Shown one piece after another: positions 15,001-30,000 of a stretch of DNA of 30,956 nt. Positions within the stretch are counted from its first letter, which is position 1, and every line of letters begins with the position of its first letter. The position numbers are program-made. Source of the stretch: a virus; UHGV virus genome UHGV-0133295; one strand, 5' to 3'.

Positions 15001-18000
15001 TATGTCGACGTCAGGCGTGAGGACGGTTCCTGTACCCGTTGATTTCACAGATGATGTTGCCGTCCAGTCACTGACTGTCCATGCCGGTACATCAGGACAA
15101 GTTCGCGCGGAAGTCAAACTTGAGGGTAATTACGCCATTATTGCGAAGAAAGTACCGTCTGATGATGTTACCGCTCAGAGATTAATCGTTAGCGGCGGTG
15201 AAACAACGTCTTCAGCAGATGGCGCAATGATAACGTTGCATGGTTCCGGAAGCAGTACTCCACGTCGCGCGGTATATAACGCACTCGAACATCTTTTTGA
15301 GAACGGAGATGTTAAACCTTATCTTGATAATGTAAATGCTCTTGGTGGTCCGGGAAACAGGTTCTCGACAGTTTATCTTGGCTCCAATCCTGTGGTTACC
15401 AGTGACGGAACATTAAAGACAGAGGCGGTCTCTCCTGACGAAGCATTGCTGGATGCCTGGGGTGACGTCAGGTATATCGCTTATAAATGGCTGAACGCTG
15501 TCGCTATAAAGGGGGAAGAAGGGGCGAGGATACATCATGGTGTAATCGCGCAGCAACTTCGTGATGTTCTTATTTCTCACGGACTCATGGAAGAAGAAAG
15601 CACAACATGCCGCTATGCCTTTCTTTGCTATGACGATTATCCCGCAGTATATGATGACGTCATTACTGGCCAAAGGGAAATACCGCTGACTGATAATGAC
15701 GGGAGCATCATTGTTGATGAGGATGATAATCCAGTGATGGTAATGGAAGACATCATTGAGCGAGTTGAAATAACGCCAGCAGGATCTAGATGGGGGGTCA
15801 GACCTGATCTCTTATTCTATATCGAGGCGGCATGGCAGCGCAGAGAAATAGAAAGAATAAAAGCTAGGTTAGACTTAATAGAAGGGAAGCACTAAATGTT
15901 TCGTTGGCGTCAAAAATATGAACTGCTCACATAAAGAAGTAAGTACATTGGCAAAAAACATTGACGTCAACGAAATTAAATATAAAAATTTAAATGCTTT
16001 TTAATGACAAGAAAAGTAACTAGTGGTAAAATAACGTAGGATACTAATATGTCAAGACTCAAGACTCAAGACTCAAGACTCAAGACTCAAGACTCAAGAC
16101 TCAAGACTCGTTTTCCGTTGATGATAATGGGTCAGGTAATATTTTTGTATGTGGAGATCTTGTAAATAGCAAAGAGAATAAAGTTCAGTTCAATGGAAAC
16201 AATAACAAACTTATTATAGAAGATGATGTTGAGTGTCGATGGCTTACCGTAATATTTAGGGGTGATAATAATTACGTAAGAATACATAAAAACAGTAAGA
16301 TTAAAGGTGATATTGTCGCAACAAAAGGTTCAAAAGTTATTATCGGTAGAAGAACGACAATAGGTGCAGGTTTTGAAGTCGTCACTGATAAGTGCAATGT
16401 TACAATTGGCCATGACTGCATGATAGCAAGAGATGTTATTTTGCGTGCATCAGATGGGCATCCTATATTTGATATTCATAGCAAAAAAAGGATTAATTGG
16501 GCAAAAGATATCATTATATCTAGTTACGTATGGGTAGGGAGAAATGTCTCTATAATGAAAGGGGTATCTGTTGGAAGCGGATCTGTCATTGGGTATGGGA
16601 GTATTGTAACTAAAGATGTGCCATCTATGTGTGCAGCAGCCGGTAATCCAGCAAAAATAATAAAAAGAAATATAATATGGGCAAGAACGGATAAAGCGGA
16701 GCTAATTAGTGATGACAAGAGATGCTCCAGCTATCATGCGAAGCTCACGCAATAAATATAAAACATCTTGCAGACATATTACCAATATTAATATAAGGTA
16801 ATAAAAATATAATTTACAAAAAAGCCCGTTGGAAGCGACGGGCATTAACCGCGGTAATGGATAAATTATTAATGTTTTTAGATTGTGAACGATATCATAT
16901 TGTGCGGAAGTAGTGAAGTAACCATGTAAAATGATTGTTTCATAGCCTATGAGACACACAAGGCTTTGTGCTCTTCTGTGGATGTGTGGCTACATGTTTG
17001 AAGATCGTTGTGCCGTATTTGTGACATACACATGGCAACATCATGCCTCAACTTTCTGTTTGTGCCATCAACTATAGATTAGTGAATGCGGTTAATGCTT
17101 GCTAAAACAGATAGTTATGATTGGTGCTACAGATTCGTAATGCGAAGGTCGTAGGTTCGACTCCTATTATCGGCACCATCAAGAAAATCAATAACTTAGC
17201 TTAACTTCTCTAAGAAATTGTATCTTCTGTTATCACTTACAAACGCCTATACGTTGTTATGGGCTTTGGTAGTGTAACACGTATGGGCGAGTAGTTCCCA
17301 GGCTCAACCTCGTAACAAGTTCCTTTGAAGCTGGAAGACGTGCCACCGTCTCTAAACCTTCTACCAAAACTCTTAGCAAGATGTTCCACACCTGGCGCGG
17401 TGTCCAATGATGCTACACGTCGTGAGACGTTGCAGAGGATAAACAGGCTAAATGATGGGAAGAGTTTTAAGTGCAATAGTGGATTAAAGCCCACCTCTTC
17501 AAAACCTAACTTGATCGGGAAAGAATCAAGCTCTAGCACGGTTTCGTCCACCGGAGTACAACGGGTGCCTGATAAGAGAAGAACTGCTAAGACTTCATAG
17601 CTTTTGTGAAAAAGCCCTTTTTAGTGGATACGCCTACGGCGCTTATTTTTTGGTATAACCATCAAAGGCGCTTTATGGCTCCTATTGTCTTGAAAATGTA
17701 TCTTTACTTGTATTGTGTTTTATGCGTAGTCTCCCTGTGTAGTATGTAACTTGTTAATTTTCATATGAATACAGAGGCACACGATGAAAAACATTGCAGC
17801 TATCAAACGGAATAACCGCAAGATTCACGCTCGTAAGTTCCTGTCTACGCCAGAAGGAAAAGCCTGGTTAGAGCGTAAACAGAGAGAGAACGAAGAAAGA
17901 AAACTCCTTAGTGAGTTGAAATGGCTTAGAGAGGATTTCTGAAAATCTCCAGAACGCAACAGGACGCATTCTAACGCTGTTTTCATTACTCGGTATAGGG

Positions 18001-27000: not shown

Positions 27001-30000
27001 AGCACCGATAACCAATCTCAAACAGGGTGCTTTAAATAATCTTGCAATGACAACTCCGGCTTATAATTTATCTCCTGTGTTTAATCTGAATCCTACATTT
27101 GAAGTGGTAACAGAAGTTCCTCTTACTATTAATTCTGACACATCCAGATTAAGCGATTATGTGGATTTTACAGCGAGAGCAAGTCGGGATAGCTTCTTGA
27201 AATCATTAACATTAACCAGCTTATCAGGACAATCTAACGGCGGGTAATTCCCGCCATAACATTACAAGGAAATTATTATTATGGCGACCGCCGGGATTTT
27301 AACCATACGAGCAGCAAATACTCAAGAACAAGATGTAAACTCTACAAAAAACGAAAATAGCAAAGCCAATAAAACAAAAGGGGAGAATGGATTTGCTATT
27401 GTCACCAGTGGGCTGGCATCTTCTGGTAATGACGTTTATGAAAATTATATGGCACTGGCCTTTGATAGTGTAGACGATGTGAACGTGAGACGTTCGGCAG
27501 ATGTCACAAGCTACCCCGTAGAAAATGGTGCTACTGTGTCTGATCACGTTCAAATTAAAAACAATAAGTTTTCTCTTAAAGGAAGGATCACTGAAACACC
27601 GATTAAAAGCGATCCTGGCTTGTTAAAGAGTGCAGGGGTGAACGGGAACAGAAGATCATTAGCTATAGACTACCTGAATCAGATTATGGACAGTAGACAG
27701 CCTTTTCTTCTTGTTACAGAAAATAAAACTTTTGAGAACGTTGTTTTAACAGGCATCGAATACACAGAAGAGGCAAGCGAATCCCTGGTATTTGATCTTA
27801 GCTTTGAGCAGATCAGGCTCGTTTCGTATGGCACTGTAAACACTGTAGCTATCAAAACACAGCCATCTAAGAACATAGGGGCGAATATGAAAAAACGTGT
27901 TAACACTGAAAAATCAAGTAGTGAAGGTGAAGACACTATTACTCCTGCCTTTAAACAGGAATAGCCGTAAACACCTCTAAAACGCTCTGTAACGATGTAA
28001 TTATAAAAGAGGCTACCAATCTATGTTGAAGCCTCTTTATTGTGTCTATGGCGTTGTTTTACGCCTTAAATTTGATTTTTTATTGATTGATAAGCCTTTC
28101 TCTATTTCAGGGTAGCGTAGAAGCTCAATATAGTTTTTAAGCTCTACTGGAGAAGCTGCATTCTTGCTATATGTGCGGAATGTTTCTGTATTACCGCGTG
28201 TATGGCCCAGGAGAAGGGCGATCCTGTCTTCTGGAATTTGATTTCGATCAAGAAGCTGTGCTACTCCGTGTCTCAGAGAATGAAACACCTTCCTTTCTGT
28301 TCCCTTTTCCCCTAAAGCCTTTCGTTTAGCTCTTGTAAATCTCTGCGTGTGCCACGTGGAACGCTTGCCGTCTGCACGTTCTGTGATGCTGGCGTGATAG
28401 AACAAAAAGCCATTATGAGGCTTTTCACGCAGCGACAACACCAACGGAGTGATAAGGCTATGTACAGGCACAACACGTGCCGCAGCTTTCGTCTTTCCCT
28501 GTGTGATTTCAAAACACAGCACACCTTCGATCTCTTTCACATCGTCTATGGTGAGACTTGCTATCTCATTGATCCGCATACCTGTATAAGCACCGATAAG
28601 ACACAAAGCTATCATTTCTTTGTTTTCTGCTGAATTACCGGAAAATACTTGCAACACCTGCAATAACTCTTTGTTAGAAAATGCCTCGTAGCTCTCTCTA
28701 CTTTGTGCCACATCAAGCCTATGCCCTCGCCAGGGGGAGAGCGCCCTTTCTGGCGCATCGTGGTAACGTGATGAAGCTAATTCCCATAGCTGGGCCATTG
28801 GGCTGATATAATTTGCAATTGATTGTTGTGAAAGGGTTTTTTGCATGTGTTCAATCCAGCCTGTAACAGTGGTTCGGCTCACATCTTGCAATGCAATATC
28901 AGGCTTTTTACGGTAGGAGAGAAACATCTCTACCGCTTTTCTTGCCTTAGCTAAAGTGGCTGGCTTCTTCTTCGTGCTGTTAATTGTCAGGTAGATTTCA
29001 AGAATTTTAAGCAATGACGGACACGAAGACGCTGTATCTTGCATTCTGGTAGCTGTTTTGGCGTATTTAGCCTTACTGCGTAACAGTTCCAGCGTGTTTT
29101 CTATTGTGCTGTTTACAGGGGCAACACTCTCCCGTAAGCAATGGTATTCATCTGCAATCTGATCACGCTTTCTACGTGCAACACGAAGGTTACTTGTATG
29201 CAGACTCCTGACAAACGTCCTTTTTCCTTCAAAAAAGGGCTGCATATACACAGGCAGCGTGATCCTTAAATAGTAGTTACCGTAAGAATCACAGATTATG
29301 TATTGATTGGGCTTGTATCTCATAAACTCCCCGGCTAAAGTGTCGGAGCGTTTGTAATGTGAAAATTGATTGTAACGCATAGAAAATGATGATTTTTTCT
29401 ATAAGATTCAATCAATTAGTAATGGTCGTAGGTGATGGCATTAACACGAGATTAATCGAGTGTTTTACTCCTATTATCGGCACCATTCTAACGTCTCCCC
29501 AAGTCTACTCAAGTATTTAAAAACCTCTTATAATCAGTATATTAATGCCCCTTTTAGTCTTTTGACGTCTATTTAAGTACCCCAAACTCTACAAGCAATT
29601 GAGGGGATTTGCTGTTCAGTTTAGTGGAGATACCCCCAAGTGAAACTCAATGCCCGTCAAATAGACACTGCCAAGCCAAAAGAGAAGGCTTACAAGTTGG
29701 CTGATGGTGGTGGTCTGTACCTCCTGGTAAAACCTGGTGGAGGAGAATATTGGCGTCTCAAGTATCGTGTAGCTGGTAAAGAGAAGCTGTTAGCACTAGG
29801 TGTGTATCCTGAGGTCACCTTAGCTGATGCTCCTGCAAAACTTGAAGAAGCTAAAAGAGGTATCTCTGGGGGAATCGATCTGATGGAAGTGAAGCGAGAG
29901 GAAAAGATTGCCCGGGAAACGCAGTTAAACAACACCTTCAAAGATATTGCCCTTGAGTGGCACAGTAACAAATTATAATCACAATAATAGTGTATATAAT

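Follow-up and report, generated by a model that had tools for sequence, protein, structure and literature searches.

The virus genome UHGV-0133295, a stretch of 30,956 nucleotides that was analysed at its full length and is called the window below, very probably contains an array of three integrative elements, acquired independently and placed in tandem, which all have the 3' end of the Escherichia coli tRNA gene thrW as their attachment site. The members of the array are a K1-specific P22-like prophage, a 12.3-kb island that bears an integrase, and a dead P4-type island that carries the vat toxin, and with the same high probability each of the three belongs with a different lineage of tyrosine recombinase. 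The array is recognised from sequence identities, from exact breakpoints and from other genomes, in which each unit is present or missing independently of the rest. The features that define it are as follows, in coordinates of the window.

17133..17178, plus strand: displaced thrW 3' fragment, core of the prophage right attachment site (attR); its last 19 nt and the T that follows (17160-17179) double as the island left repeat.
17179..29466, plus strand: integrative island, 12,288 bp, about 38% G+C, with identical boundaries in avian pathogenic E. coli (APEC) O1, E10 and Shiga toxin-producing E. coli (STEC) 08_4358.
28046..29380, minus strand: island tyrosine integrase, 444 aa, with DUF6538, SAM-like and catalytic domains (Pfam, PHROG).
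29381..29466, plus strand: island attR, arm derived from the island itself, with the same sequence in APEC O1 and E10.
29467..29486, plus strand: island right repeat, consisting of the last 19 nt of thrW and a T (from junction comparison with island-free strains).
29487..29978, plus strand: spacer, then the N-terminal 112 codons of a P4-type integrase (29640-29978; from Pfam and homology).

Displaced thrW fragments and junction comparisons

The segment at 17133-17178 is exactly the last 46 nt of E. coli thrW, tRNA-Thr(CGU), from the anticodon loop to CCA, the reference copies being those annotated in APEC O1 (region L001, 3971-4046) and FDAARGOS_1253 (region L003, 2444-2519). Identity between the window and thrW stops exactly at 17133 and at 17178, in agreement with the first-pass annotation, which had described a tRNA-Thr 3' segment closing the prophage at these limits. 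ARAGORN detects no complete tRNA gene in the window, and the segment is therefore a displaced fragment. The 20-mer ACTCCTATTATCGGCACCAT is present at 17160-17179 and 29467-29486 and nowhere else in the whole window. The recurrence noted earlier beyond the island integrase is thus real, but the repeat consists of the last 19 nt of thrW plus the next T and not of 20 tRNA nucleotides. Both displaced fragments, 17133-17178 (46 nt) and 29467-29485 (19 nt), are on the plus strand, in the same orientation as the gene. In island-free strains, intact thrW continues directly into the sequence that is found after 29486 in the window, and 29467-29486 represents the thrW 3' end that originally stood ahead of the vat island.

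The 20-nt repeat and an accompanying 10-nt repeat, GGTCGTAGGT, are short, and beyond that nothing speaks for an origin by chance or by local duplication with no tie to integration. Shuffled versions of the window gave no match to ACTCCTATTATCGGCACCAT in any of 100 shuffles, even with up to two mismatches allowed, and GGTCGTAGGT, for which 0.02 occurrences would be expected by chance, has just two in the window, at 17147 within the 46-mer and at 29424. The repeats also match, to the base, the points at which homology to genomes lacking each element ends. Junction comparison and shuffle statistics together rule out such an origin for all practical purposes.

Filled and empty sites in other E. 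coli genomes provide the main support for the array, since all unit boundaries coincide exactly with the repeats. Three arrangements of the units are found: thrW leading directly to the integrase remnant and vat, without the island (FDAARGOS_1253); thrW leading to the 12.3-kb island and then to the remnant and vat (APEC O1); and thrW leading to a prophage that runs from int to the tailspike and neuO and ends in the 46-nt copy (elppa4, the right end of which is 99.9% identical to the window). In E10 and STEC strain 08_4358, thrW is followed by the island but the vat island is missing. It lies directly behind intact thrW in APEC O1 and STEC strain 08_4358 and behind a P22-like prophage in E10, with the same ends throughout. 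The members of the array occur independently and their filled and empty sites break at the repeats, as is expected of a tandem array in the sense of the Islander database.

At the level of single junctions, the left end of the island (TCAAGAAAATC...) directly adjoins intact thrW in APEC O1, the right arm of the island and the 19-nt core are continued by the sequence found behind intact thrW in FDAARGOS_1253 (TTCTAACGTCTCCCC...), and in the window the phage right arm and the 46-nt core run into the left end of the island. The junctions of the window, APEC O1, FDAARGOS_1253, elppa4 and E10 align as nested left and right attachment sites (attL and attR) predict. Alignment to the intact thrW of strains without the given element, which had been proposed as a check, placed the breakpoints as predicted, and the filled and empty states with breakpoints at the repeats support the earlier proposal of serial integration into one tRNA 3' end. 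Among 5426 complete E. coli genomes, the island is present over at least 80% of its length in 185 and the island-remnant junction in 72. An arrangement in which thrW abuts the 5' end of the P4-type integrase is found at coverage of at least 80% in 704, an upper bound that takes in variants with a full-length integrase.

Mechanism and order of integration

The array probably arose by a mechanism in which each integration involves a crossover inside the tRNA gene and the element brings its own copy of the tRNA 3' part. Because of this copy, an intact thrW would be regenerated at the proA-proximal end after each integration, and the old tRNA 3' part would be displaced to the distal end of the element, giving a direct repeat. 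The P22-like K1 prophage, with its CUS-3-like virion genes and neuO, would have carried 46 nt, from the anticodon loop to CCA, and left the copy at 17133-17178. For the island this portion would have been just 19-20 nt that reach from the T-loop to the acceptor end, and the island lies between the repeats at 17160-17179 and 29467-29486. The P4-type vat island would already have been beside thrW, its integrase having been truncated since. The suggestion of a longer core for the P22-like phage and a shorter one for the island accords with the 46 nt and 19-20 nt that they have in common with thrW. Integration of the array elements was presumably catalysed by their integrases, of which that of the island is intact (444 aa), that of the vat island is a 112-codon N-terminal remnant and that of the phage lies outside the window, and the island and the phage may still be able to excise. 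The probable order is that the vat island is the oldest, followed by the 12.3-kb island and then by the phage.

Several observations weigh against this account. The exact phage-island junction of the window is found in no complete E. coli genome, with 0 records covering at least 80% of 15800-17700, and the left end of the prophage, with the intact thrW and the phage integrase, is outside the window and was examined in relatives only. No distal thrW fragment of the vat island was found in APEC O1, where IS1 and integrase debris are present at the far end, so that the integrase remnant and the position are the only signs of an origin of this island by integration. The junction predicted for an excised, circular form of the island (...ATTAATCGAGTGTTTTACTCCTATTATCGGCACCATCAAGAAAATCAATAAC...) was not found in IMG/VR or JGI metagenome contigs with the longer exact pattern. 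A short pattern of this junction matched one IMG/VR contig, in which the right end of another element adjoins the left end of the island, and which is a tandem and not a circle. Finally, the order of integration is not derivable from the map, since the 46-nt fragment contains the whole 19-20-nt core of the island and integration of the phage last or of the island last yields the same map.

For this reason a reversed order has to be considered, in which the same mechanism placed the prophage first and the island later entered the displaced 46-nt fragment at the phage right end. Besides the entire island core and the T-loop being available in that fragment, arrays in which other elements precede the island do exist (E10 and the IMG/VR contig L025). 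The 72 complete genomes with the island-remnant junction are without this phage, however, and the phage-island junction is seen in none, so that the island is favoured as the older resident and the reversed order appears unlikely.

A further alternative is that the array was imported and not built in this lineage, with the thrW-proximal block, or the 20-kb segment of island and vat, arriving through homologous recombination of flanking core genes and the repeats being inherited scars. The island and vat are treated as a single 20-kb 'PAI-APECO1-thrW' in a review (PMC7545054), the island-remnant junction is 100% identical across several unrelated-looking strains, and the island of the window is a mosaic relative to APEC O1, with a capsid protein that is 100% identical and two small open reading frames (ORFs) at 48-62%. 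Import of a block would nevertheless leave the origin of the repeats unexplained and merely shift the integration events to an ancestor, and the island and the vat island are found separately and are thus distinct units. This alternative has some weight but is rather unlikely, and stepwise integration at thrW is the preferred reading.

Tandem arrays at thrW and elsewhere

Stacking at thrW is ordinary, the gene being a heavily used hotspot at which tandem arrays are already known. A megablast search with the 76-nt thrW gene gave matches at 8002 places in 5410 E. coli genomes, with at most four per genome, and about 2600 of the 8002 are extra fragments of at least 28 nt. In strain Sakai (O157:H7, CP-933H/I region), the elements Sp1 and Sp2 lie in tandem behind thrW, and the site has been called a compound prophage (PMC8190617). 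As in the window, intact thrW is followed by an identical 46-nt copy, here where the annotated Sp1 and Sp2 meet, and the distal position is taken by a P4-like element that encodes an integrase of its own; the end of Sp2 has an 11-nt thrW copy. Unlike the window, the Sakai array comprises a lambdoid remnant and a P4-like satellite, and has two members, without the 12.3-kb island and without the vat island. In elppa4, the same phage as in the window is followed by a P4-like satellite. Tandem insertion is also found within the family of the 12.3-kb island, two members of which are arranged in tandem at tRNA-Gly(CCC) in Citrobacter sp. NCU1 (region L022, 1-15000), with a period of about 13.25 kb, integrase regions that are 89% identical, and a third integrase after them.

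The Islander database defines tandem arrays and lists 125 with at least two members and 4 with at least three among 3919 islands (PMC4383910). Each member of such an array has its own displaced tDNA fragment, oriented like the tRNA gene, together with an integrase gene (PMC4383910). In the window, the integrase of the third member is truncated and its distal fragment is missing, and only two members within the window therefore qualify under the strict Islander definition.

Two further arrangements were observed. In E10 (regions L004 and L005), a P22-like prophage ahead of the island is seen twice in tandem, an integrase leading into another copy of the tailspike end and an attP-like junction of the phage, which represents either a double lysogen or an assembly artefact. 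In L025, taken as its reverse complement, the right end of another element (...TGTGTTTTACTCC) stands directly before the left end of the island at about 1278, an arrangement that constitutes a further kind of thrW tandem.

The K1-specific prophage and neuO

The part of the window that precedes the 46-nt fragment holds the following features.

1..16048, plus strand: late region with the virion genes, portal to tailspike, of a P22-like prophage that belongs to the CUS-3/HK620/Sf6 type (from DNA identity).
12950-15895, plus strand: tailspike (from the annotation in elppa4).
16049..16755, plus strand: neuO, phase-variable polysialic-acid (K1 capsule) O-acetyltransferase (from the repeat and comparison with elppa4).
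16756..17132, plus strand: phage-derived arm of the prophage attR, identical in the window, elppa4 (L002) and E10 (L004, L005).

The late region has 95-98% DNA identity to HK620, Sf6, N7 and CUS-3, and the P22-type set of virion genes is present in its usual order from portal to tailspike. The match to CUS-3 has 98.4% DNA identity over 5041-16976, tailspike and neuO included, and the right end of the prophage is 99.9% identical to the thrW prophage of elppa4, in which the tailspike and the acyltransferase are annotated. The tailspike homologue is annotated as an endosialidase in CUS-3 and MS1657. The neuO gene starts with ATGTC, followed by eight copies of AAGACTC at 16052-16107. In elppa4, neuO has 21 AAGACTC copies in frame and encodes 265 aa with RLKTQDS heptads. 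The heptanucleotide repeat and the rule that the copy number be a multiple of three have been described (PMC3046976), and since eight is not a multiple of three, neuO of the window is frameshifted and in the phase OFF state.

The phage of the window resembles CUS-3 of E. coli K1 in its endosialidase tailspike and in a neuO with the AAGACTC repeat, and differs from it in the attachment module, as it carries a thrW-specific arm and the 46-nt core. CUS-3 is presumably integrated at argW. The match to CUS-3 proper ends at 16976, which indicates that the attachment and integration module at 16977-17178 has been swapped. The last ~200 nt of the prophage and the 46-nt core are identical to the prophages of elppa4 and E10, not to CUS-3. 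At the left end of the elppa4 prophage, proA is followed by intact thrW and then by an integrase gene 14 nt from thrW; this enzyme matches the HK446 integrase at 100% identity and, across 97% of its length, P22 Int at 54.7%. P22 itself uses the same tRNA gene, thrW, with a 46-nt block of identity from the anticodon loop to CCA. The elppa4-type prophage differs from P22 in that its integrase is a diverged member of the family and its virion genes are of the HK620/Sf6/CUS-3 type. The attP and attB sites of P22 at thrW, with a 46-bp common core, were reportedly described by Leong et al. in 1985.

The vat island

The window ends within the third member of the array, where two more features are found in addition to the spacer and integrase segment.

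29979..30956, no strand assigned: start of the vat island cargo (from comparison with APEC O1).
About 30413-30906, minus strand: MarR-family regulator gene upstream of vat (from comparison with APEC O1).

The P4-type integrase remnant reported at 29640 is borne out by an ORF of 112 aa (29640-29978) that matches the Pfam family Arm-DNA-bind_3 (DUF4102) with E=9e-24. In their N-termini, the product is 49% identical to Sakai Sp2 IntS and 57% identical to the integrase of the P4-like element of elppa4. Homology to full-length integrase genes adjacent to thrW ends at 29978, and the C-terminal tyrosine-recombinase catalytic domain is absent from the ORF, which stops after 112 codons. In RefSeq, the product of this locus is listed as an Arm DNA-binding protein that is incomplete, with a missing C-terminus. 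The ORF is the truncated integrase of the vat island and is a remnant, not functional.

From 29467 on, the order of spacer, truncated P4-type integrase, MarR-family regulator and vat is that found after intact thrW in island-free strains. The part of the window after the island is 99.9% identical to APEC O1, and 29381-30956 is 99.9% identical to E. coli SF-468, which marks the window as E. coli DNA. Relative to APEC O1, the MarR gene has a 1-nt deletion in a T run at 30618, with a frameshift after codon 96, which may reflect either a genuine mutation or an error in sequencing the homopolymer. The original description of this island, as VAT-PAI, is reportedly that of Parreira and Gyles in 2003. 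The island is known as VAT-PAI or PAI-APECO1-thrW and has been listed as one 20-kb island (PMC7545054). The window is collinear with PAI-APECO1-thrW of APEC O1 over 17133-30956, from thrW to the MarR gene upstream of vat, and differs in having the prophage in front. Under the reading given here, the single 20-kb island divides into two units, a P4-type remnant and, distinct from it, a 12.3-kb element that has an integrase and repeats of its own. On the minus strand, 30213-30324 weakly resembles the threonine operon leader in Rfam (25.8 bits, the gathering score being 55; E=0.31), which is most likely due to chance.

The island integrase and its split attachment arm

The integrase of the 12.3-kb island is intact, with a start codon 86 nt from the 20-mer, and has a dN/dS (ratio of nonsynonymous to synonymous substitution rates) of 0.03-0.04, indicating purifying selection. 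Identity to the P22-family integrase is 24% and is confined to the catalytic core, and the enzyme is neither P4-type nor P22-type.

The first-pass annotation had also pointed to a split T-arm upstream of the right-hand 20-mer. The split is real, and GGTCGTAGGT does precede the 20-mer, but it is located in the island's own attP (element attachment site) arm and is not a chromosomal tRNA gene split in place. The second GGTCGTAGGT ends 33 nt ahead of the second 20-mer, and the attR arm consists of GGTCGTAGGT at 29424-29433 (thrW positions 45-54), an insert of about 30 nt at 29434-29463, and then TTT. This E. coli arrangement, in which GGTCGTAGGT and the insert are followed by TTTACTCCTATTATCGGCACCA, is identical in the window, APEC O1 and E10. 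Comparable arms are present in two relatives, the regions compared being 29424-29466 of the window, 14620-14686 of L019 and 15251-15341 of L017. In a Kluyvera relative, with an integrase that is 47% identical, CATTCGGTTGCGAAGGTCGGTAGGT is followed by a homologous 27-nt insert and then by GTTCGACTCCTATTATCG-CACCA. Its arm represents nearly the entire 46-nt thrW 3' half with an interrupted T-arm, and its left tRNA match is longer than that of the E. coli island. A Buttiauxella relative, with an integrase that is 54% identical, is inserted in tRNA-Leu(CAA), and there a 31-nt insert of unrelated sequence separates 14 nt of the anticodon arm from a 44-nt perfect repeat of the tRNA 3' part; this element is bounded by tRNA-Leu and the 44-nt direct repeat adjoining the integrase gene. 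The split thus falls in the T-arm in the thrW islands and in the anticodon loop in the tRNA-Leu island, with inserts of about 27-31 nt.

The presence of a split arm in Kluyvera and, analogously, in the tRNA-Leu relative indicates an old and recurrent feature of the integrase family. It is conceivable, with the same tentative standing as the satellite interpretation with which it is linked below, that split tRNA homology in the attP arm would be a hallmark of the integrases of this island family. Two explanations for the insert were tried and discarded. An extrudable hairpin that would rejoin the tRNA-like halves was rejected because the inserts of E. coli and Kluyvera fold no better than shuffles (z ~0); folding of the insert of the tRNA-Leu relative is weakly better (z=-1.7). 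A diverged copy of the tRNA anticodon and variable region was rejected because identity at the Kluyvera site is about 16%, which is at chance level and was read base by base by eye, not computed with a tool. As a separate observation, the first ~17 nt after CCA are similar between the left end of the island (17180-17200, AAATCAATAACTTAGCT) and the integrase-side arm of a P22-like phage (region L006, 4579-4600, AAATCAATAAGTTACCT), despite integrases that are unrelated beyond the catalytic core.

Gene content of the island

The remaining features of the island are the following.

17179..20856, no strand assigned: AT-rich, repeat-dense stretch of about 3.7 kb with almost no annotated genes (RefSeq has one 52-aa ORF only).
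21254..21981, plus strand: Rep-like winged-helix initiator gene, ATG at 21289, 230 aa (Pfam HTH_36 and PHROG replication-initiator families).
23696..25105, plus strand: 120-aa ORF, then the major capsid protein (24077-25105, 342 aa; Phage_cap_E, E=3e-16).
25194..27964, plus strand: region whose first ORF encodes 67 aa (from gene order).
25412-27247, plus strand: tape-measure homologue, 611 aa (from homology to PaulScherrer bas60_0018).
27281-27964, plus strand: Dit-like tail-tube-initiator homologue, 227 aa (Pfam Dit_like, E=3e-29).

The AT-rich stretch is probably an origin or regulatory region. It includes six iterons of 21-22 nt (GGGGTAGGTCAYAGTGARCTA) at 19329-19374 and 19549-19636, which flank AT-rich repeats, as well as three ACCTAGGAAATGATTTCC repeats at 19427-19502 and several TTACACAGGG motifs. 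The 120-aa ORF may encode a decoration protein, as judged from its position only. Several conserved small ORFs are present, among them one of 135 aa at 22406-22813; Pfam gave no matches for the small ORFs, and a fold search for the 135-aa ORF was abandoned, as the AlphaFold model with 26 homologues, with a mean predicted local distance difference test (pLDDT) score of 52, was too poor. Searches with Pfam and PHROGs found no terminase, portal, protease, sheath, tube or lysis genes in the island, and gave no matches to the AlpA, primase, Sid/Psu/Delta or alpha primase-helicase markers. PADLOC detected no anti-phage defence genes, the Rep-like protein having only weak winged-helix matches to CasR and Csa3.

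The closest phage relatives of the structural genes of the island are strictly virulent Stephanstirmvirinae myoviruses of ~145-150 kb (Justusliebigvirus or phi92-like, and Phapecoctavirus or phAPEC8-like). In phage PaulScherrer, the 'tail tube initiator' bas60_0019 matches the Dit-like protein at 55% identity (E=4e-71), and the N-terminus of the tape-measure homologue is 53% identical to bas60_0018, the first 70 nt of the gene being 91% identical. The capsid protein has 21-24% identity, over its full length, to the major head proteins of the ~145-150-kb myoviruses. The gene order (an ORF in the decoration position and the capsid gene, then a small ORF, the tape measure and the tube initiator) is as in PaulScherrer. 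Two short stretches of DNA are shared with these phages more closely. A 40-nt block at 18316-18355 is identical to a non-coding gap of Stephanstirmvirinae phages, and 42 nt at 21254-21295, comprising the 5' untranslated region (5'UTR), the ribosome-binding site and the first codons of the rep-like gene, are 100% identical to a gene of phage Mt1B1_P17, although the two proteins are only 26-28% identical. Neither the 3.7-kb non-coding region of the island nor the phage region holding the 40-nt block has Rfam matches, and ARAGORN detects no tRNA in the phage regions L009 and L010.

The middle island belongs to a conserved Enterobacterales family that is under purifying selection. Homologues of its capsid protein form 53 clusters, from Enterobacterales throughout. 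The gene order of the island is kept in Escherichia, Kluyvera, Buttiauxella, Citrobacter and Scandinavium, with variation in the integrase and the tRNA target (Thr, Gly, Leu), and the capsid gene alone also occurs in Klebsiella, Enterobacter and Serratia. Four E. coli copies of the island have no broken ORF, and their dN/dS values of 0.03-0.3 again indicate purifying selection.

Possible role of the island

Judging from these sequences, the island may represent an undescribed family of satellites or parasites of large virulent myoviruses of E. coli and Klebsiella (Stephanstirmvirinae), an interpretation that is offered tentatively. Literature searches yielded no description of such a satellite or interference element for these virulent phages. 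A satellite of this kind would be silent in the tRNA gene, would sense infection through copied phage regulatory sequences (the 42-nt 5'UTR segment of the rep gene and the 40-nt non-coding block) and would then replicate from the iterons. By supplying its own capsid, tape-measure and tail-tube-initiator proteins, it would divert virion assembly of the helper for its own spread, or poison it.

The absence of terminase, portal, protease, sheath, tube and lysis genes, together with the lack of an excised form among public contigs, might instead indicate a decayed prophage remnant, immobile and functionless, with structural genes left over from random deletion. No stand-alone contig of ~12-14 kb occurs among the 21 IMG/VR relatives identified through the capsid protein, which are contigs of 19-76 kb, 18 from isolate genomes and 3 from metagenomes. 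On the other side, the same reduced set of genes is kept in the same order across five Enterobacterales genera with different integrases and tRNA targets, every ORF is intact at dN/dS values that signal selection, and the closest relatives of the structural genes are strictly virulent ~150-kb phages and not temperate ones. These features disfavour a decaying prophage, which is quite unlikely, and fit an interacting element, whether satellite or interference element.

Known phage satellites such as cf-PICI, PLE and P4-like elements share with the island an integrase at one end and a size of 12-14 kb, and a replication initiator with iterons is likewise found in known satellites. Phage-derived structural genes are a feature of cf-PICI as well. 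Links to a virulent phage are shared with PLE (ICP1) and with PICMIs (virulent Vibrio phages), a dependence of the island on a helper phage being at most hinted at by its homologues of Stephanstirmvirinae structural proteins and the two identical ~40-nt blocks. In contrast to PICI and cf-PICI, the island is without AlpA, primase-Rep, small terminase, portal, protease and connector genes, and in contrast to P4-like satellites it is without Sid/Psu/Delta, which are annotated in Sakai Sp2. The combination of capsid, tape-measure and tail-tube-initiator homologues is found in the island only, when compared with cf-PICI, PLE and P4-like elements.

Implications

What has been called the '20-kb thrW pathogenicity island' in avian and extraintestinal E. 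coli comprises two separate elements, and a K1-specific neuO phage is able to sit at thrW ahead of both islands. This is of use for correcting island boundaries and for reading the turnover of prophages and islands in extraintestinal pathogenic E. coli (ExPEC). The stacking itself has annotation value only, and the larger potential lies in the middle island. If that island is indeed a satellite of phi92-like and phAPEC8-like phages, these candidates for therapeutic use would have their first reported satellite, and the island would provide a second model, after PLE and ICP1, of an integrated element that exploits a strictly virulent phage. Such an element could affect the outcome of phage therapy in K1, APEC and Klebsiella strains.

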